Below, piece after piece: positions 4,526 through 55,182 of a stretch of 64,000 nt of DNA. A program made the position numbers and the translations under genes. Location: NCBI GenBank assembly GCA_051656605.1, contig JBOGCF010000057.1, forward strand, positions 307-64,306, read 5' to 3'. Positions within the stretch are counted from its first letter, which is position 1, and each line of letters begins with the position of its first letter. The notes beneath the pieces are model-generated. The model did no database searches. It worked only from the letters and a program-made list of their open reading frames with translations, and had not been told where the DNA came from. Origin of the DNA: Tannerellaceae bacterium (GTDB taxonomy: Bacteria; Bacteroidota; Bacteroidia; Bacteroidales; CAMTPD01).

Positions 4526-4530
4526 CGTTT

Positions 4531-4649
4531 AAAAACCATGTATACTTTTTTTTAAAACCTCGTTTAGTTTTTTAAAAAACCTTATTAGCTTTTTGCGCAA
4601 ACCATGCATGCTTTTTTTTGGTGGTTTTGGTCTCTGGAACAAAAGGTTT
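4531..4649. repeat. Degenerate tandem units of about 21-24 bp (A-run, CC, TGCATGC-like core, T-run), locus A of a dispersed family
   Basis: Units start at 4531, 4554, 4574 and 4595. The 17-mer AAACCATGCATGCTTTT (4599-4615) matches 39222-39238 at 15/17. Confidence 0.5.
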
Positions 4650-32041: not shown

Positions 32042-32314
32042 AGGTAAGTATTTTTAGGATATGTGATCGAGTTGTGTATTGTGATGTTTTGTATTAATTG
32101 TTTTATATATAAATGTTTATGGGTGATTTGTGACAAGATAGTTTTTATGAATATACCGTGTTTTTAGGTGTGTTTCTAGTAGTGTGTAATATAGTTAAAA
32201 TTGTTTACTATTAACTGATTGGCTATATTTGTTCAAGATGCCTATTATTTAGGGGGAATGAATGATGTGTAATGAATGCTAGTATTGCGATATACAGCCG
32301 AATAACTAATAAAA

Positions 32315-33049
32315 ATGATATTGTCAAATTTGTTAATTAAAGATCAGAATTTTAGGTCAAAATCAGCTATTACAACCGAAAAGCTTCGCTCTCGGTTTCA
32401 AGGTTTAGTTTATATGCAGCAGCGGTCTGCAATTTTATTTGTACATAGAGATCAGGAAGTTTATTTTTATAATTATGATCCAGCATTGCAAGCTACTTTA
32501 GGTTCCGACTGCGAAAAGTTTAACTGTGTGCTCCATCTATTTTCAGAAGAAGATCTACAGATTATCAATCAATATATTAAAGTGATAAACTCATATATTC
32601 TAGAACGTATAGATAAAAAAGATCGTCTATCATATTTTACAATAATCGGAAATAACTCATTGACAGACTATGATCGTGGATATGCTTTAAAAATATATTC
32701 AAATGGATATGATAGAGAAGGTTGTCTTGTTTCGACAGTTTGTATTCTCGAAGCAATCGGTTATATAGGAAAACCAATATTACGTCTAGATAAGATTTTT
32801 GAAAACAAATCATTTATTTATTCGCGAGTTTACAAACGTTTTGTAAAAGAAGAGAAGCAAGACCTGAATACGATTGATTTGAAGATTTTGCGCTTGACGG
32901 GAGAGGGTAAAAAAGAACAAGAAATTGCTGATGAATTGTCTATGCCTCTCTCATACTTAAAAAGACAGAAAATTACATTGATGGATAAGATTGACGTGAA
33001 AACACTCGCAGAAGCCATCTTTTATGCGTACAAGAAAGGTCTTATTTAA
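32315..33049 (+). CDS. LuxR-family transcriptional regulator with PAS-like N-terminal domain
   Basis: 244 aa. C-terminal LuxR-type HTH (LRLTGEGKKEQEIADELSMPLSYLKRQKITLMDKI). Confidence 0.75.
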   Translation: MILSNLLIKDQNFRSKSAITTEKLRSRFQGLVYMQQRSAILFVHRDQEVYFYNYDPALQATLGSDCEKFNCVLHLFSEEDLQIINQYIKVINSYILERIDKKDRLSYFTIIGNNSLTDYDRGYALKIYSNGYDREGCLVSTVCILEAIGYIGKPILRLDKIFENKSFIYSRVYKRFVKEEKQDLNTIDLKILRLTGEGKKEQEIADELSMPLSYLKRQKITLMDKIDVKTLAEAIFYAYKKGLI

Positions 33050-33064
33050 ACGATTGGATGAATT

Positions 33065-33829
33065 ATGGAACACGTTCGAAGATATTTTAGGAATTACTTG
33101 CAAGAAATAAGAGAGAAGGATATTCAAGACCGACTGCATATGATGATGGAGTTGCTCTATAGCAGTATTGTAGCCGGAAAAGTAATAGATGTTCCGATAC
33201 ATATTACCGGATTTGACGACTATAATCTATACTATATGTCGCCGTCTTATATGGAACTGTCAGGATATAGTGAAGCCGATGTTTACGCGGGAGGTTTCTC
33301 TTTTTTGTATGATATTATTCTTCCTGAAGATTTAGTTATTATAAAGGAGTTGAAGGCAAACTTGTCGACCAGAAAACTGGGGCCACTGCGTAATGAATTG
33401 CAGTGCGACTATTCAGTTCATTTTAATTATCGAATTCGTCATAAAGATGGCTCGTTGATTCATTTAGAGTGCAGGATGCTGCCGGTTGGTTACTTTAAAG
33501 ATAGACCCAATTTTTTGCTGTGTTATGTTCGCAAAACAGAAGATAAGTTCAAGCGAAAATTTGAAATACATTTTTTTTCGAAGCAGATGTGTTACGTGTT
33601 TGATACACATGTTAATAAGTTTGTGCTTCAAGAGAAAATGATGCTAAAAGAGATCGAAGTTCAGATTCTTGAACTTGTAAGTAAAGGAGCGAGAGAGAGT
33701 ACGATGGTAAAACAAACCGGTTTAGACATCAATATGATCAAGTACCATAAGAAAAATATCATGAAGAAGTTGTCGGTGCAAAGTATGAATGAAGCCCTCT
33801 ACTATGCTCTCAAAAACAATATCTTATAA
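33065..33829 (+). CDS. PAS domain / LuxR-family transcriptional regulator (paralogue of the previous gene)
   Basis: 254 aa. PAS-like core (YRIRHKDGSLIHLECRMLPV) plus a C-terminal LuxR HTH (ILELVSKGARESTMVKQTGLDINMIKYHKKNIMKKL). Confidence 0.75.
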   Translation: MEHVRRYFRNYLQEIREKDIQDRLHMMMELLYSSIVAGKVIDVPIHITGFDDYNLYYMSPSYMELSGYSEADVYAGGFSFLYDIILPEDLVIIKELKANLSTRKLGPLRNELQCDYSVHFNYRIRHKDGSLIHLECRMLPVGYFKDRPNFLLCYVRKTEDKFKRKFEIHFFSKQMCYVFDTHVNKFVLQEKMMLKEIEVQILELVSKGARESTMVKQTGLDINMIKYHKKNIMKKLSVQSMNEALYYALKNNIL

Positions 33830-33944
33830 AGTTAAACCAGTGTCTTTTTTGATGTTTGTACTTTGTTTTTGGAATGATCTATCTGCGAAGAGGAGCTTTG
33901 GTCTCGTAGATAATTTAATACATAGTAATGATAAAGAATAGAAA

Positions 33945-33979
33945 AAGGTTAGCCAAATCTGTAAGATTGACTAACCTTT
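33945..33979. terminator. Hairpin downstream of the convergent LuxR and QueD-like genes
   Basis: AAGGTTAGCCAA / TTGACTAACCTT imperfect stem with T-rich flanks. Confidence 0.5.
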
Positions 33980-34009
33980 GGTCACAAATAAATTTACGTA
34001 TTCTTGCTA

Positions 34010-34573
34010 TTATTTCTGATAACCACACTTAGCACAGTGTCCATCTTCTTCTAGCGAAATACCACAAAGAGGACAACGATCTATGTTATTGTTTGTATCA
34101 AATTCGGCAGATGCAGCATTTACACCACTTGTGAATGTGATTTTAGCGATGTTCAATTTGTCTTTCAACAGATCATATACAATCTTAATCATGCCTTCTA
34201 CAGTCATGGTTTCTTTAGTAACCACAAGGCGAGATTCAGGATAGGCTGTAGCAAGTTCGGTTTTAAAAGCTTCACCTTTCATTGTATTCATCGGGTGTCC
34301 GTTTTTGATCCCTTGTTTTTCGTACACGTCAAGTATAGCTGGCAAAAGTGGATCATCAGATCTAAGGATCAATGCGTGGTCAAAGTTTTTCAATACTTCC
34401 CAAGCTATCTTCTGAATTTCGTTGCAAGGATATACCATGTTAACACCATCATTAACGCTATCTTCTACTTCAATTGTAATGATCCCTGTGTGGCCGTGAA
34501 GGTATTGAGCTTCTCCTTGAAATCCGTAAAAACGATGTGCATATTGCAAATCAAATCTTGTAATACTTCTCAT
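34010..34573 (-). CDS. 6-pyruvoyl-tetrahydropterin synthase / QueD (COG0720) family protein fused to a C-terminal zinc ribbon
   Basis: 187 aa. AHRF and LHGH zinc-ligand motifs and FDHALIL. C-terminal CPLC..x11..CAKC. Confidence 0.75.
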   Translation of the reverse strand: MRSITRFDLQYAHRFYGFQGEAQYLHGHTGIITIEVEDSVNDGVNMVYPCNEIQKIAWEVLKNFDHALILRSDDPLLPAILDVYEKQGIKNGHPMNTMKGEAFKTELATAYPESRLVVTKETMTVEGMIKIVYDLLKDKLNIAKITFTSGVNAASAEFDTNNNIDRCPLCGISLEEDGHCAKCGYQK

Positions 34574-35015
34574 AATATTTTTTGTAAATGTTTTAACTAA
34601 TACTTATTCCTGTCTTTAAAATCCCGGGTGTTTTTGTTTGACAGTGCAAGTTTAAGGCCTTTATTCGGCCCTCGCAAATTGATAATTTTAATACCTATAT
34701 AGTGTTAGACTATTCTCATTGATACACAGTGATATATTTGATTGTTTGAGGTTTTTGAGTATTGAATATTTTTGAAAAGAGTTGTTTCCTGTGTCTCAGT
34801 TCCATCTCTTATCTCATAAAAGTTTGCAGCTATTTAACCTTGTTTCTTCCAGTTCATGATATTAATTGTTATTTGGGATAGTGTGATAAGAAGGTTTGTA
34901 TATAATGTTAATATACTGGATGGATCTGTGAAATAGCCGGACTAAAAGATGAAGTTTATTTCGTCTCTTTGTGTTTTCTAAATTTAATAATTAACGAACC
35001 AAAGGTTTTATCTAA

Positions 35016-35462
35016 ATGTTGGCAATAATCAGAAAGCACGGCGTGTGTATTAGACTTGAAACAGAAAAGAAGATCAGTTATTTGTATTGTGCAGAGTGTA
35101 TGGAAGAAGGGTTTTCAGAAGCGTTCTTGAAAGAATTGGTACAGCTTCGAGATGAAATTTGCGCTAATCTAAATCAACTTATTCTCGAACACAATAAAAG
35201 GTGTCCGCTGCACAGGCGTTTTTCTACCATGGGAATGTATTTAGATGCCCCCGAAAATCAGCAAAGTTTGATAAAGGAAGCCCAAGCTTTCGCGCTACTT
35301 ATTTCAGATGCGATGGACGATGGATCGATCACGAATGGGAAAACTGCGTGGGCAAAGATACTTTCGCGATTAGAGCTGAGTAATGGTACTTTTCTCAAGT
35401 ACAGTACATGGCAAAAATACTTGCAAATGTTTATTTTTGTTTATATTGTTATGAAAGAGTAA
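35016..35462 (+). CDS. Hypothetical protein (orphan, Cys-containing)
   Basis: 148-aa ORF with host-like AT-rich composition and no family I recognise. Contains CAEC and a later CPLH. Confidence 0.45.
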   Translation: MLAIIRKHGVCIRLETEKKISYLYCAECMEEGFSEAFLKELVQLRDEICANLNQLILEHNKRCPLHRRFSTMGMYLDAPENQQSLIKEAQAFALLISDAMDDGSITNGKTAWAKILSRLELSNGTFLKYSTWQKYLQMFIFVYIVMKE

Positions 35463-35510
35463 TAATAAACTGCGTATTTTTATTTTCTCACCCTTTTTTT
35501 ACCTCTTTCG

Positions 35511-35549: not shown

Positions 35550-35769
35550 TTATCGTATTTGTATAAAAAGCTTAATTTCTGTTTGTGTGATTCGTTATTT
35601 TGTTTATGCTGAGCGAGTTGTGCGAGTGGTGAGGGGAGGATTGCGATGTGTTTCGAAGGCCTTACCTTGCGGTCGTTATCCAGTAGTTCATGGATAGCAA
35701 ATTGTTGATCTTAATTTACACGATGCGTGTACTGTTAACCCTGTTGAAGAATGAACTTAAATAAATACT

Positions 35770-38250
35770 ATGAATCAGAGAAAAGTGTCACTTTTTGCCA
35801 ATTGCAAGCAGAAAGTACAACAAGAAATTACGTTAGAAGAGGTACGAGCGCGTGCCGGTGAAGCAAAGCACATGCAGGTGATTAAACAAATTGAAGCTGC
35901 CGCAAGCAGGGGAGATAAAGACGAGGCCGATCGGCTCAAACGCACGCTGCCGGCCGTGGTGTTTGGAGGATTGTTTCGGGGAGGTCATGCCGTGAAGAAT
36001 CTCGTAGCAGGGAGCGGTTTGTTGGTGCTCGACTTCGACAAGCTCACGCCGGAACAGGTAGAAACAGCCTTGCGCATTTTGCGAGAGCAACCCTCGGTGG
36101 TGATGGCCGCGCCCAGTCCTACGGGCAGAGGGATCAAAGTGGTGGTATGTACCGATCACGACCCTTCGCGCCATCCGGAGGTATTTGCCTATACCAGCCA
36201 ATACTTCGAATCGTTGCTGAATCTCACTGTAGACCAAAGTGGAAAAGACATCTCTCGTCTGTGTTTTCTGTTTTCGATCGAAAAGCTTCATTACAACGAG
36301 CATGCACAACCGCTCGACTTGTCGCAGATCGGAACGTGTGCCGCAGTAGCACTTCCGGTAGTGAAGCCTCCGAAAACAGACCCTTCGGAAGTGGTAACCG
36401 GCGAATCGGGTCCGACTACAGAGGGTGGAAGGATCAAAGGGATTCCCACTCATGTGATGCGCAAGTTGCGCATGAGTACCGGAAATGCAAGCAGCGTGGG
36501 TGGTTCCTTGGGCGAGCTGGCCGACGATTTTATCGCCCTGCAATGGCGACGCAGCGAAGCACTCAGCATACACCTTGAGTCGAGAGCTTGCTTCAAGGAC
36601 GGCGCACGCAATGAGTTTGTATTCAAGTTTGCCTGCAAAGCCTGCCAATGCGGAATTCCGCGCCCCATTGCCCAAGCCTGGGGCGAAGAACGCTATGGAA
36701 GTGAAACCTTCAAGTCGGGTGAGGTGATCTCTGCTTTTGGCAGTGCCTATAGTAGCAATGAAACGCTTTTTGGCAGGGATTCGGACCGACTGCAACAGGC
36801 CGCTCAGGCGTTGCACAACCTCCCTTTTGGCGAAGGCGGAGTCGGGGGCGAAGGAGAAGCTCTACCCACGGGCGACGAGTTGTATGAGTACACACCCCTG
36901 CTGCCCGATACCATCTTTGAGAAGTTGCCGCAATTTTTTCAAGATGCCGTAAAGCCACAGCGCAGCAGCAGGCAGCGCGATATCATGCTAGCCTCGGCAC
37001 TCACGGTGGTAAGTGCCTGTATGCCCGGAATTACCGGTCTTTACGATGGTTGCGAATACAGTCCGCACCTCTATTTCTTTATCGTGGCAAAGGCTGCCAA
37101 TGGTAAAAACATGGCTTCGCAGCCCTTCAAGATGGCGCGTCATTACGTGAGCATTCTCAAGACCGAAAGCGAACGTAAAATAGCTCAGTACACCCAAGAC
37201 AAAGCCAATTACGATGCCTATTGCCTGCAAATGAAAGCCGAGCGTAAGCCGGTAGATACCAGTCGCGAACCCATCGAACCCAACCCGGTGATGCCGTGGA
37301 TACCGGCCAACATCAGCCGGGCGATGTTTATCAAGCAAGTGGTTTACAACGGTCGCCTCGGGTCGTTTGTGTTGGAGACAGAGGCAGATGCCTTGTCGGT
37401 CAATAAGAGTACCGACTGGGGCGATCTCAGCCTGCTGCTTCGTGCCGCCTTTCATCACGAACGCATCTCGATGGCTCGCAGTGGCGACGGCAAAAAGGAT
37501 GGTTTCGAGGAGATCGACGAACCCCATTTTGCCATCTTCGTTACCGGCACGCCCGACCAGTTTGTCCGTCTCATGGGCGATGCCCAAAACGGTCTCTACA
37601 GCCGCTTTTGCATTTATACCTATAGCGAGCGCGAAGGGTGGCATGATCCGGCACCGTCGTCGCAGGGGGTAAACTTCAAGCAATACTATTCCCGCTTGAG
37701 CGAAACCATGGCGCAATATGCCTTTTTCTCGCGCGAACATCCGGCACAGTTTCATTTGACCGAGTCGCAGTGGCGACGTTTCAATGCCGAGATGGAACCG
37801 CTGCTCGACAAAGCGCAGGACTTTGGTTTCGAAAACGAACCCAGTGTGGTAAAGCGTCTCGGACTTATTTTATATCGCGTGGCAATGACGCTGAGTGCCG
37901 TGCGCCGTGCCGAGCGTGAGATAGGCAGCAGTGAGTTTTACTGCAACGACAACGATTTTGAGTCGGCACTGGCCATCAGCAGGGTCTGTTTGGAGCACAG
38001 TAAACTAATGCTTTCGGGCTTCAAGGTGCAAGATAAGTTTTCGGGCGGTCTCAAAAAAGGAGTCAGCAGTGCCGAAGAGATCCTCGCCAAACTCCCCGAT
38101 ACCTTCAGTAAGAAAGACGTTGTCGAGGTGTATAAAGAACTCGGGAAGTCGGTCTCTACCGCCCGTCGGTTTTTAGAGAACTCCGTCAAAGAAGGACGAA
38201 TCATCAAAGAAGGTCGTGGTACCTTTCAAAAGGTAGGTTCAAAAAAATAA
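35770..38250 (+). CDS. VirE_N (BT4734-like) / DUF3987 primase-helicase-like replication protein
   Basis: 826 aa. The N-terminal ~180 aa match the BT4734-like/VirE N-terminal pattern (LPAVVFGGLFRG...LLVLDFDKL). Then a low-complexity linker, a large DUF3987-like C-terminal region and a terminal winged-helix-like tail. Confidence 0.75.
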   Translation: MNQRKVSLFANCKQKVQQEITLEEVRARAGEAKHMQVIKQIEAAASRGDKDEADRLKRTLPAVVFGGLFRGGHAVKNLVAGSGLLVLDFDKLTPEQVETALRILREQPSVVMAAPSPTGRGIKVVVCTDHDPSRHPEVFAYTSQYFESLLNLTVDQSGKDISRLCFLFSIEKLHYNEHAQPLDLSQIGTCAAVALPVVKPPKTDPSEVVTGESGPTTEGGRIKGIPTHVMRKLRMSTGNASSVGGSLGELADDFIALQWRRSEALSIHLESRACFKDGARNEFVFKFACKACQCGIPRPIAQAWGEERYGSETFKSGEVISAFGSAYSSNETLFGRDSDRLQQAAQALHNLPFGEGGVGGEGEALPTGDELYEYTPLLPDTIFEKLPQFFQDAVKPQRSSRQRDIMLASALTVVSACMPGITGLYDGCEYSPHLYFFIVAKAANGKNMASQPFKMARHYVSILKTESERKIAQYTQDKANYDAYCLQMKAERKPVDTSREPIEPNPVMPWIPANISRAMFIKQVVYNGRLGSFVLETEADALSVNKSTDWGDLSLLLRAAFHHERISMARSGDGKKDGFEEIDEPHFAIFVTGTPDQFVRLMGDAQNGLYSRFCIYTYSEREGWHDPAPSSQGVNFKQYYSRLSETMAQYAFFSREHPAQFHLTESQWRRFNAEMEPLLDKAQDFGFENEPSVVKRLGLILYRVAMTLSAVRRAEREIGSSEFYCNDNDFESALAISRVCLEHSKLMLSGFKVQDKFSGGLKKGVSSAEEILAKLPDTFSKKDVVEVYKELGKSVSTARRFLENSVKEGRIIKEGRGTFQKVGSKK

Positions 38251-38271
38251 AATCTCAGTTTATCGAAAATA

Positions 38272-38311
38272 ACGGGTGTCGGGCGAAAGTCCGATACCCG
38301 TCGTTTTTTTT
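38272..38311 (+). terminator. Rho-independent terminator after the primase-helicase gene
   Basis: ACGGGTGTCGG / CCGATACCCGT stem (one G-U pair) followed by a T-run. Confidence 0.8.
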
Positions 38312-38444
38312 AGCTTATTGTTCTTTTTCGATTATAAATCGAGTCTTTACCCTACGCAAAACAGTGGATTGCCGGGTATAGGTTTTCCTGAGTTGCCAGT
38401 GGTTTTATCGGATTGCTAACATAGTGGATTTCGGAAAATGGAGA

Positions 38445-38843
38445 AGTGGTCAAAATGTCTGTGAATGGTCACGAATGACCACTTTGTGACCACTTGTTAA
38501 ATGGTTGTTGGTTAGGTGTTAGGGTGGTGTTTTGGAGGTGAAGTGGTCACATGACCACTCTCTCTCTTTTAGATCTCGTGTTATTCGTATTTTTCATATC
38601 ATATCAATTATATTATCTAAATAATATATGTAATCAGATGAAAGGAAATGAGGGAAATTAAAAAAAGAAGAGGGGGCACAAAATGACCACTTTTTTGACC
38701 ACTTCCCGGTTTTCGAAAAGAAACGGATGTGGGGGCTTGTGGTAAGTAGCTGATGTGTAGGTGATAACTTCGATGGGGGGCTTTGCTTTTGTAAAGAAGC
38801 AAGTGGTCATCGTGTGGCCATTTATGACCACTCAATGACCACT
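38445..38843. repeat. Iteron-like array of TGACCACT / AGTGGTCA octamers
   Basis: Perfect copies: AGTGGTCA at 38445, 38542 and 38802; TGACCACT at 38476, 38487, 38552, 38684, 38696, 38825 and 38836. Degenerate copies at 38363, 38398, 38423, 38464 and 38813. Confidence 0.85.
38581..38680. other. AT-rich spacer between the iteron modules (candidate DNA-unwinding element)
   Basis: About 100 bp, almost entirely A/T (ttattcgtatttttcatatcatatcaattatattatctaaataatatatg...), inside an otherwise GC-rich island. Confidence 0.55.
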
Positions 38844-38846
38844 GTA

Positions 38847-39077
38847 TCACGGAGCACCGAGGATGTTGACAAAGCAGGCAACCACCTTGGGCGGTAGTAT
38901 CTTCATGTACGGGCGCCAACCTGCGGCAAGAAGTGCGTCGCGAAGTCCGGGCGTGCTGTTTATCCAGCGCCCCAGTGCTTTGGTGGCCATCAAAGGCGCA
39001 CTGCCGATAAAATAAAGTTGTGCTAACTCGGTAAAGGCATAGGCCCTGATGCGAAAAGGTTGTTCGTCGTTTTTCAT
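38847..39077 (-). CDS. DUF4248 domain-containing protein
   Basis: 76 aa. Pattern FRIRAYAFTELAQLYF...WINSTPGLRDALLAAGW...ILPPKVVACFVNILGAP fits DUF4248, a family that co-occurs with DUF3987 and HU-like genes in Bacteroidales. Confidence 0.8.
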   Translation of the reverse strand: MKNDEQPFRIRAYAFTELAQLYFIGSAPLMATKALGRWINSTPGLRDALLAAGWRPYMKILPPKVVACFVNILGAP

Positions 39078-39129
39078 GTTCTTAGATTTTTAATACACTT
39101 AAATATACGAATAATGTATTAATAATCAA

Positions 39130-39262
39130 AGCGGTAAGCTGTTTTTGTTTTGAGAAAAGCATGCCTGCTTTTTCCAAAAACTTAGCAAGGTTTCTCCAAG
39201 AAGCAAGCAAGCTTTTTCGAGGAACCTTGCATGCTTTTAGAGGGAGCTTCGCAAGCATTTTG
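39130..39262. repeat. Degenerate tandem units of about 21-23 bp, locus B of the dispersed family
   Basis: Five to six units, each a purine-rich head, a GCA/TGC-containing mini-palindrome and a T-run. Examples are AAAAGCAtgccTGCTTTT at 39155-39172 and GAACCTTGCATGCTTTT at 39222-39238. Confidence 0.5.
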
Positions 39263-39310
39263 GGGGGGACGTTATTCTTTTTTTCTTGTCGGTATTGGGT
39301 TGTAAGAAGA

Positions 39311-39332
39311 TTGTTCGTAGATTTGCGAACAA
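39311..39332 (+). promoter_or_regulatory. arsR promoter/operator: -7 box TAGATTTG nested in the inverted repeat TTGTTCG-N8-CGAACAA
   Basis: Perfect 7-bp inverted repeat arms at 39311-39317 and 39326-39332. TAnnTTTG at 39318-39325. AAGGAG at 39337-39342, 8 nt before the ATG. Confidence 0.6.
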
Positions 39333-39350
39333 TAATAAGGAGATCGTATT

Positions 39351-39668
39351 ATGTCAACACCCCATTTGAATGATGTAGAGCAGATTGCTCGTTTTGCCAA
39401 AGCCCTGGGACATCCCATGCGCATTGCGATTCTGGAGTTTTTGCTCAAGCAAGAGAGCTGTTTTTTCGGCGAAATTCACGAAGTGCTTCCTATCGCGAAG
39501 GCTACGGTTTCGCAGCATTTAAAAGAATTGAAAGAGGCCGGATTGATACAGGGCGAGATTGAGCCGCCCAAGGTGCGCTACTGTATCAACAAGGAAAACT
39601 GGGCGGTTGCCCAACGCCTTTTCTCTGCCTTGTTTGCGATGCAATCCAAATCGACAGGCTGCTGTTGA
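39351..39668 (+). CDS. arsR: ArsR/SmtB-family metalloregulator
   Basis: 105 aa. Winged HTH ([14 protein letters not shown]...[26 protein letters not shown]). First gene of the arsR-arsC-acr3 operon. Confidence 0.9.
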
Positions 39669-39714
39669 TTGTATGAGTTGTTTTTTTTGATTACGAACTA
39701 AATAAGCTTAAAGT

Positions 39715-40158
39715 ATGAAAGTATTGATTTTATGTACGGGCAACAGTTGCCGTAGCCAGATGGCACATGGTTTTGTACAATCGTTTGACGAGCGCCTGGA
39801 TGTGCACTCGGCAGGAACAAAAGCGGCAGGCAAACTCAACGCCGGAGCTGTGAAAGCGATGGCCGAAGTGGGTATCGATATCAGCAATCACACTTCAGAT
39901 CCGGTAGAAAAATACCTGAACGAAAAGTGGGATTATGTGATCACCGTATGTGGCGGGGCCAACGAGACGTGTCCTACCTTCGTGGGAGATGTGAAGCATC
40001 GCCTGCACATGGGCTTCGACGATCCTTCACACGTGACGGGTACTCCGGAGTATGTAGAGAGCGAATTTCGCAGAGTGCGTGACGAGATCAAGGAGCGTTT
40101 CTTTGCGTTGTATAGCAGTGAAATGAAGCCTGAATTGGATCGTGATGGAGACAAATAA
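39715..40158 (+). CDS. arsC: Arsenate reductase, LMW-PTPase (thioredoxin-coupled) type
   Basis: 147 aa. CTGNSCRS P-loop and a downstream CGGANETC cysteine pair. Confidence 0.92.
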   Translation: MKVLILCTGNSCRSQMAHGFVQSFDERLDVHSAGTKAAGKLNAGAVKAMAEVGIDISNHTSDPVEKYLNEKWDYVITVCGGANETCPTFVGDVKHRLHMGFDDPSHVTGTPEYVESEFRRVRDEIKERFFALYSSEMKPELDRDGDK

Positions 40159-41200
40159 AGAACAGGGAGGTATCGGCTTTTTTGAGCGATACCTTACCCT
40201 TTGGGTAGCCTTGTGTATTGTGGTCGGTATTGCGATAGGGCAGTATTTGTCGGCTGTTCCGGCGCTGCTGAGCAGGTTTGAATATGTCAATGTTTCGATT
40301 CCGGTGGCGATCTTGATTTGGCTGATGATTTTTCCGATGATGCTCAAGGTAGATTTCGAGAGTGTGAAAAACGTAGGTAAGCGCCCCAAAGGCATTTTGA
40401 TTACGTGTGTGACCAATTGGCTCGTGAAACCGTTTTCGATGTTTGCCATCGCTTGGTTCTTTTTCTTTGTGGTGTTTAAGGCATTTATTCCCGAAACGCT
40501 GGCGCACGAGTATCTGGCCGGAGCGGCATTGCTGGGCGCTGCACCTTGCACGGCAATGGTATTTGTATGGAGCTACCTTACGCGTGGCGATGCGGCCTAT
40601 ACGCTGGTACAGGTGGCGGTAAACGACTTGATTATTCTGGTTGCCTTTGCTCCTATTGTGGCTTTCTTGCTCAACATCGGAGGGGTGACGATTCCGTGGG
40701 ATACCCTTTTCTTGTCGGTGGTGTTGTTTGTGGTGATTCCGCTTACAGCAGGCGTTATTACGCGTGTTACGGTAATCAAGCACAAGGGGGCCGAGTATTT
40801 CAACAACGTGTTTGTGAAGAAGTTCGACAAGTTTACCATCGGCGGATTGCTACTCACGCTTGTTATTTTGTTTTCGTTTCAGGGCGAAACGATTCTGGCC
40901 AATCCGATGCACATTGTGCTGATCGCGATTCCGTTGATTATTCAGACGGTACTGATCTTCTTTGTGGCTTACGGATGGGCGCGTTATGAAAAATTGCCGC
41001 ATTCGATTGCTGCTCCTGCCGGAATGATTGGGGCGAGCAACTTCTTTGAATTGGCCGTGGCGGTAGCGATTTCATTGTTTGGCTTGCAGTCGGGCGCGGC
41101 ACTGGCTACGGTAGTGGGAGTGTTGGTCGAAGTACCGGTGATGCTGCTGTTGGTACGTGTAGCCAATAACACCCGTCGCTATTTTCCTGCCGACAAATAA
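40145..41200 (+). CDS. acr3: Arsenite efflux transporter, ACR3 family
   Basis: About 351 aa polytopic membrane protein with a conserved GAAPCTAMV segment. The ATG at 40145 overlaps the arsC stop by 14 nt. Confidence 0.92.
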   Translation: METNKEQGGIGFFERYLTLWVALCIVVGIAIGQYLSAVPALLSRFEYVNVSIPVAILIWLMIFPMMLKVDFESVKNVGKRPKGILITCVTNWLVKPFSMFAIAWFFFFVVFKAFIPETLAHEYLAGAALLGAAPCTAMVFVWSYLTRGDAAYTLVQVAVNDLIILVAFAPIVAFLLNIGGVTIPWDTLFLSVVLFVVIPLTAGVITRVTVIKHKGAEYFNNVFVKKFDKFTIGGLLLTLVILFSFQGETILANPMHIVLIAIPLIIQTVLIFFVAYGWARYEKLPHSIAAPAGMIGASNFFELAVAVAISLFGLQSGAALATVVGVLVEVPVMLLLVRVANNTRRYFPADK

Positions 41201-41225
41201 GTAAGATTCCTTTTTTTATATCATA

Positions 41226-41245
41226 AGTTCGTTGTTTTGCGAACT
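41226..41245 (+). promoter_or_regulatory. Second copy of the ars operator-like palindrome (AGTTCG-N8-CGAACT)
   Basis: GTTCGTTGTTTTGCGAAC (41227-41244) matches GTTCGTAGATTTGCGAAC (39313-39330) at 16/18. Confidence 0.45.
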
Positions 41246-41390
41246 ACAAACCAAGCTTAGTTTTCCTTAGCATGATGAATAGGAGAGAAGGTGCCGAAAG
41301 CTCCGAATCGTCTTTGTCCACCATTGTATATTCGTAGTGTAATCAAGATGATTGCGTAATAGGTACTCACTTTTATAAAATGTATTTTGT

Positions 41391-41825
41391 ATGGCACTAC
41401 GTTACAAGACTGTCTGGAAAAAAGACATGCGAAAGGATGCACAGGAAGGTGCAAAATTACTCTACGGGGCTACGGTGGTTACGGCTCAGTACTCGTTTGA
41501 CCAATTGTGTAAAGACATCACGGACAACTGTTCGGCTACGGCGAGCGACGTGCTGATGGTGGTGAGCGCAATGGTGACAATGGCCAAGAAGGCGTTGCTG
41601 CGTGGCGAAACGGTGGTGATCAACGGATTTGGCAACCTGCGCTTGCAATCGGGAAGCCGGGGTGTAGCCTCGGAAGAGGAGTTTAAAACCCATCTGATGA
41701 AGAAGCCTAAAGTGATATTCCGAGCCAGTACCTCCCTGCTCGAAGTGCGAGATCAAGTGCGCTACGAAGCACAGCAAGTTACCGAGAAGGCAGTGGAGTG
41801 TGACAGACCCCATTCGCTCGATTAA
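41391..41825 (+). CDS. HU-family (Bacteroidales HU_HIG-like) DNA-binding protein
   Basis: 144 aa. The pattern LCKDITDNCSATASDVLMVVSAMVTMAKKALLRGETVVINGFGNLRL is typical of the Bacteroidales HU-like family. Confidence 0.8.
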   Translation: MALRYKTVWKKDMRKDAQEGAKLLYGATVVTAQYSFDQLCKDITDNCSATASDVLMVVSAMVTMAKKALLRGETVVINGFGNLRLQSGSRGVASEEEFKTHLMKKPKVIFRASTSLLEVRDQVRYEAQQVTEKAVECDRPHSLD

Positions 41826-41887
41826 GGATGGCGAAGCAGGGGAAATCCGTCATTGCTGAGGTATAAATAACTGAAAAATCTACTACG

Positions 41888-41998
41888 ATGAAAAAGATTA
41901 AAACCATTCTTGAGATTTTGTGGGCTCTATTCGGATTACTGATCGGGCATTGTCCTAAAAACCCACCGGACAAATGTCCGTTGTCTGGAGGTAAATAA
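41888..41998 (+). CDS. Candidate 36-aa small peptide (MKKIKTILEILWALFGLLIGHCPKNPPDKCPLSGGK)
   Basis: Below the ORF-track cutoff. ATG start, a hydrophobic helix, then a Cys/Pro tail, followed by a good terminator. Sits directly downstream of the HU-like gene. Confidence 0.4.
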   Translation: MKKIKTILEILWALFGLLIGHCPKNPPDKCPLSGGK

Positions 41999-42016
41999 CT
42001 CTTGGTTAGCAAAAAG

Positions 42017-42052
42017 GAGTCTGTCAAAATACAATTGACGGACTCTCTTTTG
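42017..42052 (+). terminator. Rho-independent terminator after the HU-like gene and small ORF
   Basis: GAGTCTGTCAA / TTGACGGACTC stem followed by TCTTTT. Confidence 0.7.
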
Positions 42053-42248
42053 ATGGAGCTGTTTATAAATTATGATTAGCTACGTATGCCAAAGCCTCAG
42101 TAATGTTTTTACATTTGATAATCAGAATAAAAATTGGGTCTTCAGTTCGTATGGAATACAAACTGATGGAACAAACAGAACATTCTCTTTTTATAAATAG
42201 TTGCATTGTAATAAATAGTAGCGTTTTAAATCGAATTTACATGTGCTT

Positions 42249-42563
42249 ATGAAAGAATCTTTGCTTAGTTTTTTATTGTCGCTTGTCTTCCTTTCTTGTA
42301 CGCAAAGTAAAACTGCAAAACAAGAAGATGTCAAGCTGTCGAAAGATGATAGCTTAATGATTGTTTTGATGTATCCGCATCTGGATACTTTGCAAGGACT
42401 ATGGGTTATAAATATAACGAAAGAAGAGGCTGAAAAACAGGGCGTTTCTGAAAAGGTTTACTTACTATTCGAGCAAAATGTACGAGATGTTAATGCCTTT
42501 ATAGATAGTATCAGAACTCATGATCCGAATGTCTCTATCAATTACAATCTGCCTGCTAAATAA
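42249..42563 (+). CDS. Small lipoprotein, unknown function
   Basis: About 104 aa. Lipobox-like LVFLSC. I prefer the ATG at 42249 over the GTG at 42243. Confidence 0.55.
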   Translation: MKESLLSFLLSLVFLSCTQSKTAKQEDVKLSKDDSLMIVLMYPHLDTLQGLWVINITKEEAEKQGVSEKVYLLFEQNVRDVNAFIDSIRTHDPNVSINYNLPAK

Positions 42564-42595
42564 CGAAAGACAATTATAAGATTGGAAAAGAAAAT

Positions 42596-42647
42596 CCCCT
42601 TATAAAGGAACCGAGCCTATTATCTAGAGTCGGAACTTTATAAGGGG
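42596..42647 (-). terminator. Long hairpin terminator downstream of cydB
   Basis: CCCCTTATAAAG / CTTTATAAGGGG 12-bp outer stem. T-rich on the minus-strand 3' side. Confidence 0.65.
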
Positions 42648-42715
42648 GTTGATTTATGACAGGGGATCTTATTTCGGGTTTTCATTTTCCGAAGGTAAGA
42701 TGCCATGAGTCCGTA

Positions 42716-51009: not shown

Positions 51010-51110
51010 AGGAGCTACAAAAAGCAAGCTTCCTTTTTTTATAAACCAAATAAGGTTTTGAGAAGAACCTTGCTTGGTTTTTGGAAGAACTACACAAGGT
51101 TTATTTTGCG
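51010..51110. repeat. Degenerate tandem units of about 21-24 bp, locus C of the dispersed family
   Basis: AAAAGCAAGCTTCC-T-run, AAACCaaataaGGTTTT and GAACCTTGCTTGGTTTT (51065-51081, 15/17 to 39222-39238). Confidence 0.45.
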
Positions 51111-53508: not shown

Positions 53509-54273
53509 ATGGGAAAGACAATAGCTTTAGCAAATCAAAAAGGCGGTGTAGGTAAAACAACTACGACGATCAACTTGGCAGCATCACTTGCTGTGCAGGA
53601 GAAAAAAGTATTGGTAATTGATGCCGATCCGCAGGCCAATGCATCTTCCGGTTTAGGTATAGACATTCGTGAAGTGAAAGCTTCGATATACGAATGTATT
53701 GTGAACGGTATTTCGACCGAAGAGGCAGTATTACCGACCGAAGTGGAAGGTTTGTATATTTTGCCTTCTCATATTGATTTGGTAGGCGCCGAAATAGAAA
53801 TGCTTAATTTGCCAAATAGAGAACGCCTGATGAAAGAGGCGTTGGCGAAAGTAAAGGACCAATATGATTATATTTTAATCGACTGTTCTCCTTCGCTGGG
53901 ATTGATTACGGTAAATGCCCTTACTGCGGCAGACTCTGTAATTATTCCGGTTCAGTGCGAGTATTTTGCACTCGAGGGTATCAGTAAACTATTGAATACG
54001 ATTAAAATAATCAAGTCAAAACTGAATCCGGGACTCGAGATTGAAGGTTTTCTTCTTACTATGTACGACTCTCGTTTGCGACTAGCCAATCAGATCTACG
54101 AAGAAGTAAAACGTCACTTCCAAAGCTTGGTGTTCGATACCGTAATTCAGCGTAATATCAAACTAAGTGAAGCTCCGAGCCATGGCTTGCCGGTGATCTT
54201 ATATGATGCCTCGTCGCGTGGATCATTAAATCACATGCAGTTGGCCAAAGAATTAATCGATAAGAATAAATAA
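53509..54273 (+). CDS. parA: ParA/Soj chromosome-partitioning ATPase
   Basis: 254 aa. Deviant Walker A NQKGGVGKTTT. Confidence 0.95.
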   Translation: MGKTIALANQKGGVGKTTTTINLAASLAVQEKKVLVIDADPQANASSGLGIDIREVKASIYECIVNGISTEEAVLPTEVEGLYILPSHIDLVGAEIEMLNLPNRERLMKEALAKVKDQYDYILIDCSPSLGLITVNALTAADSVIIPVQCEYFALEGISKLLNTIKIIKSKLNPGLEIEGFLLTMYDSRLRLANQIYEEVKRHFQSLVFDTVIQRNIKLSEAPSHGLPVILYDASSRGSLNHMQLAKELIDKNK

Positions 54274-54291
54274 TATAAGAAATCATACTCT

Positions 54292-55182
54292 ATGTCATTA
54301 CAAAGGAAATCTGTATTAGGAAGAGGTCTTGACGCTCTGATCACGTTTGATGAAGTGAAAACCGGGGGGTCTTCTTCGATCAACGAGGTAGAACTGTCAA
54401 AGATTATGCCCAATCCGGATCAGCCCCGATCAGTATTTGACGAAGATGCTTTAAATGAATTGTCGGCATCAATCAAGTCGCTGGGTGTCATACAGCCTAT
54501 AACGTTGCGTGAGATTGATACCGATAAATATCAAATTATATCGGGAGAACGTAGATACCGTGCCTCTAAAATGGCCGGACTTACTGCTATCCCGGCTTAT
54601 ATCCGTACTGCGGCAGATGAACATGTCGTAGAGATGGCTTTGATCGAGAACATACAGCGCGAAGATTTGAATGCTGTCGAGATTGCTCTCACTTATCAGA
54701 AACTGATCGATGTGTATGGACTTACACAAGAACGATTGAGCGAACGGGTAGGTAAGAAGCGTACTACGATTGCCAATTATCTTCGACTACTGAAACTTCC
54801 TGCCGAAATTCAGATGGGATTGAAGAACAAATTGATTGACATGGGGCATGCCCGTGCAATTATTTCGGTTCAAGATCCGGCAAAACAGCTCGAGATTTAC
54901 GAGCTCATCTTGAGTAAAGGCTTGTCGGTTCGTAATGTTGAGGAGCTAGCTCGTGCTGCTTCTAATGGCGAACAGATTGCTGTGCAAACAGAAAATCAGG
55001 CAATTGAAAAGAAAGCAAATTCTGAAGAGTTTGTTTTGTTGAAGAAACATCTTTCAAACTTTTTTAGTACGAATGTTCAACTCGTATGTAATGAAAAAGG
55101 AAAAGGTAAAATATCGATTCCTTTTACGTCGGAAGAGGAGCTTGAAAAGATTATTGCCTTATTTGATACATTAAAAAAATAA
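54292..55182 (+). CDS. parB: ParB/Spo0J partition protein
   Basis: 296 aa. GERRYRAS box and an HTH. Confidence 0.95.
   Translation: MSLQRKSVLGRGLDALITFDEVKTGGSSSINEVELSKIMPNPDQPRSVFDEDALNELSASIKSLGVIQPITLREIDTDKYQIISGERRYRASKMAGLTAIPAYIRTAADEHVVEMALIENIQREDLNAVEIALTYQKLIDVYGLTQERLSERVGKKRTTIANYLRLLKLPAEIQMGLKNKLIDMGHARAIISVQDPAKQLEIYELILSKGLSVRNVEELARAASNGEQIAVQTENQAIEKKANSEEFVLLKKHLSNFFSTNVQLVCNEKGKGKISIPFTSEEELEKIIALFDTLKK

Follow-up and report, generated by a model that had tools for sequence, protein, structure and literature searches.

We analysed 64,000 nucleotides of DNA from a Tannerellaceae bacterium (GenBank assembly GCA_051656605.1, contig JBOGCF010000057.1, positions 307 to 64,306; hereafter the window, whose own coordinates are used throughout), focusing on a segment that an earlier note had described as a GC-rich island at 35560-42052 with a replication module and arsenic cargo. 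Our analysis suggests, with a probability of roughly 0.6, that this segment is a conserved Bacteroidales cassette with a self-contained initiator/origin pair that is fixed in the chromosome, rather than a discrete mobile island. The core of the cassette consists of an open reading frame (ORF) of 148 amino acids (aa), a fused primase-helicase-winged helix protein (the initiator), an iteron/AT-rich region, a DUF4248 gene, a gene for an HU-HIG DNA-binding protein and a small peptide ORF. The earlier note had left three options open, and of these the fixed module fits best, with the decayed integrative element and the satellite mobilised in trans both faring poorly. What is new is an initiator and candidate origin of the self-loading primase-helicase and iteron type that is yet fixed in the chromosome, with no mobility genes found, and that possesses swappable specificity blocks and a slot for cargo. 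The DUF3987/DUF4248/HU trio, which is among the most frequent unexplained gene sets of gut Bacteroidales, thereby gains a concrete and testable function, with swappable matched pairs of tail and repeat and the layout of a self-loading helicase origin.

Initiator tails co-vary with downstream repeats

The C-terminal ~33 residues of the initiator co-vary exactly with an 8-9-mer that is repeated downstream of its gene, in 10 of 10 loci and across six tail/repeat pairings (Table 1), such that counts of tail type against repeat type form a block-diagonal matrix (10 loci, six types each). The sample comprised 15 collected homologues, with downstream DNA for eight of them.

Table 1. Tail types of the initiator and the repeats found downstream of each.
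Tail	Loci	Repeat
STARRFLEN..KEGRIIKE	window, L082	TGACCACT
SETSCRRF.T.Q..G.IVKQKHG	L001, L002, L081, L085	TGRCTAT
SASSASRFLAKMLSENRIIKPSYG	L084	TGACAAAC
SSSSARRFLEDMLSKKMITKPGYG	L089	TGACCAAC
SSSTGRRFLDDALSKGLVVKLSYG	L086	TGAGCAAC
SGTTMKRLLAEYVKENRLAKLRKG	L087	TGGACCA/TGACCCA

Close pairs of initiators revealed how these pairings arise. Two close relatives of the window, L001 and L002, carry TGGCTAT/TGACTAT instead of TGACCACT, and their initiators diverge from that of the window in the last ~33 residues only. Between the window and P0001 (the L001 initiator) the protein body is 98% and the tail 37% identical, and the same mismatch recurs in P0003 against P0004 (95% and 37%), P0006 against P0007 (86% and 30%) and P0010 against P0012 (84% and 38%). 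Pairs that share a tail type behave otherwise, with body and tail identities of 65% and 73% (P0001-P0006), 65% and 80% (P0004-P0006) and 86% and 82% (a further pair), and grouping by tail type does not follow the phylogeny of the protein body. At the nucleotide level, identity between the window and L001 breaks at 38152, and the replaced block (38152-38845) is bounded by 97.7% identity on both sides. The mismatch of body and tail in four close pairs indicates that the block of tail and repeats was exchanged several times and always as a matched set, and we therefore hold with high confidence that the winged-helix tail is a predicted reader of its own iterons.

An origin-like region follows the initiator gene

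The repeats of the window form an origin-like region directly past the initiator gene (Table 2). All 10 exact copies of TGACCACT lie within 38445-38843 and none elsewhere in the 64 kb, against an expectation of 1.3 copies per window, and 10 copies were reached in 0 of 100 shuffles, so the iteron region that had been claimed from inspection is real. The total comes to 12 sites when two degenerate copies are counted, with half of them on either side of an AT-rich core; adjacent iterons are 10-12 bp apart, and two long imperfect inverted repeats set the iteron clusters symmetrically. The core carries a clade-conserved ATTATATTATC box followed by a AAGAGGGGG box, both conserved across L001, L002, L085, L087, L089 and L110, and the compared iteron regions all share an AT-rich core with a ATTATATTATC-like box and a AAGAGGGG box; this core is a candidate DNA-unwinding element. 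The region as a whole sits between the convergent 3' ends of the DUF3987 and DUF4248 genes, past a strong terminator, and is therefore no promoter or operator. Taken together with its anatomy we predict, with moderate confidence, that the region acts as an origin.

The initiator is a fused primase and predicted helicase

The VirE_N/DUF3987 primase-helicase call of the earlier note held, as Pfam places BT4734-like_N (PF08800, 84.6 bits vs a cut-off of 22.4, residues 56-167) and DUF3987 (PF13148, 141 bits vs 27) in one 826-aa protein. The primase motifs D88-F89-D90, G121-I-K123 and V154-D155 are invariant or nearly so in 16 homologues, and the Walker-type residues G445-K446 and E536/E538/D540 are invariant in the same 16. 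The BT4734-like family is defined by motif I (DhD), motif II with K replacing H, and motif III (hD) (PMC11724360, PMC5862659), and the window initiator has K for H in motif II as is typical of that family. Judged by these motifs, the primase part is a BT4734-like archaeo-eukaryotic primase (AEP).

An AlphaFold2 model of the initiator (mean predicted local distance difference test score, pLDDT, 72.7; N-terminal primase domain, ~1-180, confident) gave a layout of primase (~1-180), helical linker domain, DUF3987 ATPase (~400-750) and C-terminal winged helix (768-821), within which the helix 795-807 and the strands 811-815 and 818-821 fall inside the swapped tail. Foldseek matched the model to MCM2-7/Cdc6, RepB' primase and LigD-Pol, and the helicase part is thus a predicted helicase of the DUF3987 family with a modelled MCM-like AAA+ fold. 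A PDB sequence search with the initiator returned no matches, nor was there sequence homology to the proteins of Staphylococcus aureus pathogenicity islands (SaPIs). Experiments on relatives have shown that a BT4734-type AEP is a primase-polymerase and that PriCT-DUF3987 is a 5'->3' helicase (PMC11724360). The family is large (1,048 clusters at 50% identity, E <= 1e-30), and the exact initiator sequence was not on record when looked up.

In the mechanism that we propose, the winged helix would read the iterons, as the co-variation supports; iteron binding would load helicase to the left and right of the AT core, and the core would melt; and the primase domain would then prime synthesis. DUF4248, HU-HIG and the 148-aa protein would be conserved accessory factors, probably architectural DNA binders, which is a guess. 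The DNA replicated could be a circle released by excision, or the chromosome could be copied in place.

The anatomy matches known replication modules

The anatomy of the cassette matches, by analogy, the Pri-Rep/ori paradigm of SaPIs and other phage-inducible chromosomal islands (PICIs), with proteins that are not homologous by sequence search. In SaPIs the C-terminal winged-helix domain reads 6-12 iterons directly downstream of rep, and an AT-rich centre splits them (PMC9371898). Shared with the window are a primase and a hexameric-type helicase whose C-terminal winged helix reads short iterons, the position of 6-12 such iterons in both orientations directly downstream around an AT-rich centre, specificity that varies between related elements and, in SaPI5, a fused PriRep (PMC9371898). 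Unlike the SaPIs, the window has an unrelated BT4734-type AEP as primase and a DUF3987 helicase (5'->3' in one studied member); no integrase, att site, Stl-type repressor or packaging/interference genes were found in its cassette, which occupies a single fixed chromosomal site in different species, in Bacteroidota, together with DUF4248, HU-HIG and a small peptide.

A second relative in design is AgaPP/AgaPH, carried by pAgo-bearing integrated elements of Flavobacteriia and proposed by its authors to be the replication machinery of the element (PMC11724360). Like the window initiator, this system combines a BT4734-like AEP whose motif II contains K with a PriCT-DUF3987 helicase that has a small C-terminal domain; it differs in that its two proteins are separate, an integrase lies beside a tRNA and no origin is defined (PMC11724360). 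The pair in the window is fused, with no integrase or tRNA found and with a cognate iteron origin candidate present.

A further match is a canonical cassette annotated by PGAP in P. distasonis and B. finegoldii, which consists of a BT4734/BF3469 protein, DUF3987, DUF4248 (reverse), HU, a 'smalltalk protein' and an amidase. Together with other loci these bear out that the trio is recurrent in Bacteroidales, as had been claimed, and no paper that treats the DUF3987/DUF4248/HU cassette as a unit was found in the literature. Inserted cargo aside, order and orientation are alike (DUF3987 -> <- DUF4248, HU ->, small peptide ->; L111 and L112), as are the cassette's own repeats in the DUF3987-DUF4248 gap and the GC-rich DUF3987 gene. 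Unlike the canonical form, the window cassette has primase and helicase fused, lacks the amidase within the interval, and carries an extra 148-aa ORF and the arsenic insert; the canonical cassette sits at capsule-locus edges and that of the window borders core genes.

Fusion of functions in one initiator has precedents. The alpha protein of phage P4 holds primase, helicase and a C-terminal origin-binding domain on one polypeptide and recognises repeated octamers (ori/crr); it differs from the window initiator in its primase and helicase folds, which are not AEP, and P4 is a complete integrating satellite phage. In iteron plasmids (pPS10, RK2, F) the initiator is likewise a winged-helix protein, its direct repeats follow one another at intervals of about one helical turn beside an AT-rich unwinding element, and proteins of the HU/IHF type assist. 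Those initiators recruit host DnaB and DnaG, whereas the window initiator brings a helicase and a primase of its own and is encoded in the chromosome.

The cassette holds a fixed site and is renewed piecewise

A scan with CydB, taking one genome per GTDB species, yielded L001-L003 as close relatives and a further 77 Bacteroidales loci that are more distant. The core cassette occupies the identical site in four related genomes (window, L001, L002 and L082), three of them separate GTDB species, such that it is present in the relatives L001, L002 and L082 and only its cargo varies. L001 possesses the same cassette at the same site, arsenic operon included, and is 97.7% identical to the window except for the replaced 38152-38845 and a missing 41880-42714; the missing stretch holds the peptide ORF, the terminator and a lipoprotein-like 106-aa ORF (42243-42563), and 73 bp lie between HU and cydB in L001. 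The left flank of L082 and L083 is as in the window (dcw cluster, acyltransferases, PAS regulator, PTPS and an upstream ~140-aa ORF). More distant Tannerellaceae keep the 3keto-GFO-cydAB synteny and lack the cassette downstream of cydB, with two Parabacteroides exceptions. The shared site in four related genomes indicates that the core cassette is ancestral there within a genus-level Tannerellaceae clade, its cargo being variable, and the conservation in one place that had been named as evidence for an ancestral segment thus exists at the level of the genus and not of the family.

The two Parabacteroides loci (L016 4403-8361 and L041 14327-19101) hold a distant copy of the trio, at 28-34% identity and a few kb downstream of cydB, in the differing order DUF3987, HU, then DUF4248. 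This placement could be due to chance, as there are several copies per genome, or could reflect an old association.

Across the genes of the cassette the ratio of nonsynonymous to synonymous divergence (dN/dS) was 0.05-0.23, with 0.17-0.23 for the initiator, 0.07-0.09 for DUF4248 and 0.05 for HU-HIG against L002. Together with the invariant motifs and the matched tails and repeats, these values indicate that the genes are maintained by purifying selection and not decaying, contrary to the idea of a decayed integrative element.

Synonymous divergence from L001 was ~0.05 for cydB, acr3 and HU alike and 0.66 for the 148-aa ORF, and divergence from L002 was 0.49-0.90 for the module and 0.18 for cydB. 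The locus is a mosaic renewed piecewise by homologous replacement, with the 148-aa allele, the block of tail and iterons, and the cargo each exchanged separately. A second patch of allelic replacement is the left flank at 32194-35465 (a 244-aa ORF, a PAS-LuxR regulator, PTPS and the 148-aa ORF), which is ~80% identical to L001 as against 95-98% for the cassette and right flank; the PTPS gene (34010-34573) is absent from L002.

The contigs of L082 (at 13433) and L083 (at 4063) end at the same base in different sequencing runs, ~45 nt before the expected start of HU, which suggests a repeat or the boundary of a population polymorphism, and contigs L086-L089 also stop within or just past the iteron region. 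The metagenome-assembled genome (MAG) to which L001 belongs carries at L110 9725-11011 a second DUF4248 gene (86% identical) with the 22-bp-periodic element described below, an AT core and six TGACCC(G/T) repeats; no DUF3987 gene was found at this second locus.

Weighing replication against other roles for the repeats

Several points weigh against an initiator/origin pair. The co-variation reflects selected site-specific recognition and not origin firing, and the same pattern would arise from a role other than replication; the number of origin regions sampled is small (11, of six types), and almost all of them come from metagenome assemblies. No circular contigs were found, and the support for replication comes from sequence and from analogy. 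The characterised DUF3987 helicase moves 5'->3' (PMC11724360) and SaPI Reps move 3'->5' (PMC9371898), such that the loading geometry may differ. The iterons of the second DUF4248 locus in L110, having no initiator gene, are either served in trans or show that the site persists without an initiator. Against L002 the module is more diverged than cydB, so that vertical inheritance applies to the site and not to every allele, and what DUF4248, HU-HIG, the 148-aa protein and the small peptide do is guesswork.

One alternative is a DNA-binding device that does not replicate, in which the winged helix would tether the protein to the repeats and the resulting complex would serve as a transcriptional roadblock or insulator, a nucleoid organiser, or a repair/restart factor at the border of an accessory locus. 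The repeats do lie between convergent genes where core DNA gives way to accessory DNA, capsule loci adjoin the cassette in L090, L111 and L112, HU-HIG and DUF4248 are small proteins of DNA-binding type, the orphan iteron site of L110 does without an initiator gene, and AEP primase-polymerases also work in repair (PMC11724360). We consider such a device unlikely, as an insulator would not need invariant catalytic residues in both primase and ATPase, and iterons around an AT core directly after the initiator gene are a specific signature of an origin (PMC9371898).

An extension of the origin reading itself, which we regard as doubtful, is that Bacteroidales chromosomes retain the cassette beside accessory loci as a secondary origin, domesticated and still active, which over-replicates neighbouring DNA in situ when the initiator is expressed. 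The loci so bordered include capsule loci in Bacteroides and the arsenic, restriction-modification (R-M), hcp and porin operons seen here. If true, gene dosage would be raised, and the cassette would be an unrecognised device for gene dosage or gene sharing; cassettes with peptide and amidase might couple over-replication to lysis and DNA release, and distinct tail/iteron specificities would keep several copies per genome independent.

Searches for mobility

Scans of the window bore out the earlier statement that machinery for movement is missing: there is no tRNA in the 64 kb, no integrase, transposase or relaxase among the scanned ORFs of at least 100 aa, and no att-like, conserved flanking or direct repeat was found at the edges of the cassette. 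Packaging, relaxase and oriT genes were likewise not found, and PHROGs gave no structural or packaging matches, its matches being limited to primase/helicase and DNA-binding families. One flanking inverted repeat (35562-35586 / 42171-42195, 25 nt, 80%) was rejected as probably due to chance, its right arm lying in the 41880-42714 stretch that L001 is missing.

These results bear on a satellite or plasmid-like replicon mobilised in trans, in which a recombinase encoded outside it would excise the element, its own origin would replicate it and phage packaging or conjugation would transfer it. The initiator/origin anatomy is SaPI-like, the diversified specificities resemble the incompatibility groups of co-resident replicons, the small hydrophobic peptide and amidase of the canonical cassette resemble a lysis pair, module alleles are more diverged than flanking core genes, and full-length homologues occur in two scaffolds from virome/phage collections, L090 (H1) and L091 (H2). 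We nevertheless consider it quite unlikely. L090, which alone of the two was annotated, is Bacteroides chromosomal DNA with capsule glycosyltransferases, and phage origin was rejected on that ground; IMG/VR holds no full-length relatives of the initiator and one partial match, with phages sharing the primase domain only. A metagenome scan with the initiator as single protein gave one locus and the viral scan none, and no circular contig was seen among seven full contigs and the two phage-collection scaffolds. The same site is held in four genomes, and the junctions of the cargo lie at the ends of conserved sequence as homologous exchange predicts. Matches labelled as plasmid proved to be large non-mobilizable records, of which the two examined (L111 and L112, used only for annotation) carry housekeeping genes and were taken as pieces of chromosome.

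The composition anomaly does not date an insertion

GC content is 40.6% for the whole window, 48.5% for 35560-42052 and 39.7% outside it, where 1-kb windows average 0.398 (standard deviation 0.033, maximum 0.494). GC within the interval peaks at 0.55 over 36001-37000 (z = 4.6), and tetranucleotide distance to the remaining window is greatest at 36001-38000 (z = 9.6), so the claimed anomaly exists by both measures, as do the stacks of long overlapping ORFs (327, 255, 231, 174 and 147 aa). It is uneven, being milder over the arsenic and HU portion (GC z 2-3, tetranucleotide z 3.6-4.2) and falling to host level, 0.36-0.38, at 38.4-38.85 kb and 39.0-39.3 kb. The left edge that had been placed at 35.56-35.60 kb lies instead at ~35.75-35.85 kb, where GC steps up with the start of the DUF3987 gene. 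The remaining window is core genome (dcw cluster, cydAB, lpxB, parAB, relA and others), including a chromosomal parA-parB pair at 53509-55182, 11 kb to the right of the cassette.

The earlier note read the high GC as a symptom of foreign origin in an AT-rich host. The GC of the DUF3987 gene exceeds that of its surroundings by 5-14 points in 15 of 15 loci (window, L001, L002, L016, L041, L082, L084-L087, L089-L091, L111 and L112), in hosts of 37-48% GC, with GC at third codon positions of up to 0.75 in loci of this set. As the excess is constant across hosts, high GC is a trait of the family and not proof of recent import, and those searching for islands should be aware that it does not date an insertion.

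A recent GC-rich island or decayed integrative element, which entered by site-specific integration and, having since been stripped of integrase and att sites, is in the course of erosion, is therefore very improbable and largely refuted. The strength of the anomaly, replication genes of the mobile-element type, accessory cargo, and the distant Tannerellaceae that have the synteny and, two distant copies excepted, lack the cassette downstream of cydB would all fit it. Beyond the constant GC excess, the same site in three GTDB species, low dN/dS with intact catalytic motifs, tails and iterons that stay matched through swaps, and the fact that no integrase, tRNA or direct repeat was found, with a lone flanking inverted repeat that is not conserved, speak against it.

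Least probable of all is an anti-phage or anti-plasmid defence module on a primase-helicase basis, given that the N-terminal matches to the PADLOC models DRT-associated VirE-PriCT and CRISPR-associated PrimPol reflect a shared domain and not a system, that the conserved cassette has no reverse transcriptase, Cas, pAgo or other effector, and that defence systems are not known to carry self-encoded cognate repeats beside the gene, notwithstanding that related primase/helicase pairs adjoin pAgo (PMC11724360), that a Cas9 gene (L086) and an R-M pair (L110) lie beside two cassettes, and that a role of HU-HIG in biological conflicts was proposed by the authors of PMC5499826. Within L086 126-6200 the Cas9 gene, of type II (1156 aa, HNH and RuvC_III), stands immediately upstream of the DUF3987 initiator.

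A slot for accessory operons between DUF4248 and HU

The arsenic genes sit as cargo between DUF4248 and HU, as had been proposed, given that this slot is empty in L082/L083, where the upstream regions of DUF4248 and HU meet after ~150 bp, and filled in L002 by a cytochrome b-like gene, an unknown 314-aa gene and a DcaP/porin-like gene. Homology to L082 stops at 39242 and to L002 at 39217, resuming with L002 at 41267. Elsewhere hcp lies beside DUF4248 (L085), an EcoRII and Dcm R-M pair takes the cargo position (L110), and DUF4248 and HU lie next to each other in L111 and L112 as annotated, the normal divergent gap being ~220-355 bp. The borders of the cargo fall where conserved sequence stops, a pattern consistent with exchange through homologous recombination between the conserved flanks; the DUF4248-HU gap is thus a slot where accessory operons exchange, and bears on how genes for resistance and surface structures move among gut anaerobes without classical mobile machinery.

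The other gene calls of the earlier note (DUF4248, arsR, arsC, acr3, HU-like and the 36-codon ORF) were upheld, with families assigned by Pfam or NCBIfam to all but the 36-codon ORF. The closest relatives of Acr3 are in a Tannerellaceae MAG (99%), followed by a Bacteroidales plateau at 81-85%. Two GTTCG-N8-CGAAC palindromes (39313-39330 and 41227-41244) bound the insert and are probably ArsR operators. They had also come up as direct repeats flanking the arsenic genes in the manner of att junctions, and were rejected as such, since the palindromes overlap a TAnnTTTG-type promoter box and the second of them precedes the next gene in L084. There the operon is longer, with thioredoxin and DsbD-like genes following and the second palindrome preceding the thioredoxin gene, and homology ends at 41250, so that the locus in the window is a truncated Bacteroidales ars locus. 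The truncation left an orphan ArsR-type palindrome, GTTCGTTGTTTTGCGAAC, at 41227-41244, ~150 bp upstream of HU, and through this putative site arsenite may control HU and the small peptide.

Partner genes, small elements and feature coordinates

Homologues of the 148-aa ORF stand directly upstream of DUF3987 in the syntenic L001, L002 and L082 (59-89% identity among them) and also in the unrelated contexts of L087 (E = 3e-12), L089 and L085. Conserved beside DUF3987 in this way, it places the start of the cassette at or before 35016 and not at 35560. Neither it nor the 106-aa ORF has matches in Pfam, PHROGs, PADLOC or NCBIfam. The hairpins that had been noted near both edges exist, and as ends of an element they do not stand: the left one is probably the terminator of the 148-aa ORF, inside the cassette, and the right one looks like that of the peptide transcript.

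Table 2. Features of the cassette in the window, with the basis of each assignment.
Feature	Position	Strand	Basis
148-aa ORF, no family match	35016..35462	+	homologues upstream of DUF3987
Left hairpin, 17-nt arms, 94% complementary, 5-nt loop	35511..35549	+	49 nt past stop at 35462
Fused initiator, 826 aa	35770..38250	+	Pfam, AlphaFold2 model, Foldseek, conservation
Specificity tail, residues 794-826 (recognition helix and wing)	38149..38250	+	identity break, model
Intrinsic terminator of primase-helicase gene	38272..38301	+	13-pair stem (8 GC) then T8
Origin-like region, 12 iterons of consensus TGACCACT(T)	38431..38846		repeat counts, spacing, AT core
Iterons left of core	38444-38452(-), 38463-38471(-, degenerate), 38476-38484(+), 38487-38495(+), 38541-38549(-), 38552-38560(+)		
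AT-rich core, 76% AT, 112 bp	38561..38672		AT content; flanking parts 53-59% AT
Iterons right of core	38684-38692(+), 38696-38704(+), 38801-38809(-), 38815-38823(+, degenerate), 38825-38833(+), 38836-38844(+)		
DUF4248, 76-aa helical protein	38847..39077	-	PF14053, 62.6 bits
~95-bp element upstream of DUF4248	39155..39260		22-bp-periodic AAACCT-N4-AGGTTT-like palindromes and T-tracts
Cargo insert arsR-arsC-acr3	39243..41266	+	homology breaks vs ars-less relatives
arsR	39351-39668	+	NF033788, score 62.5 vs cut-off 55
arsC, probably thioredoxin-type, LMWP-type	39715-40158	+	Pfam LMWPc met; TIGR02691 133.7, below equivalog cut-off 174.3
acr3	40142-41200	+	TIGR00832, 388.4 bits vs cut-off 282.8
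HU-HIG DNA-binding protein, 144 aa	41391..41825	+	PF18291, 70 bits
36-codon hydrophobic peptide ORF	41888..41998	+	position after HU
Intrinsic terminator, end of HU-peptide transcript	42016..42046	+	12-pair stem then CTTTTGATGG

DUF4248 is 84-99% identical across modules with differing iterons, and a protein conserved whatever the iteron type is not the reader of the iterons. It had no PDB sequence match, and its AlphaFold2 model, which is poor (pLDDT 69), gave no Foldseek match at E < 1. HU-HIG holds the same position in relatives, being 96% identical in L001 and 90% in L002. In a survey of HU-HIG genes these were almost entirely without conserved operonic linkage (PMC5499826), a statement that the cassette contradicts for its own subset of them. 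The 36-codon peptide after HU recurs unchanged in L002 and at 84% identity in L003. In L111 and L112 the genes after HU are 'smalltalk' genes, and the likeness of the peptide to these is limited to position and composition, with no NCBIfam match.

An Rfam scan of 34.5-43 kb gave nothing close to threshold. The 22-bp-periodic element upstream of DUF4248 is conserved in six modules, every one of this clade, independent of cargo, and may be a genome-wide binding array or a bent-DNA element. Look-alikes of 85-95 bp lie in the window at 4530-4615, upstream of ruvA, and at 51018-51100, between lpxB and a NigD-like gene.

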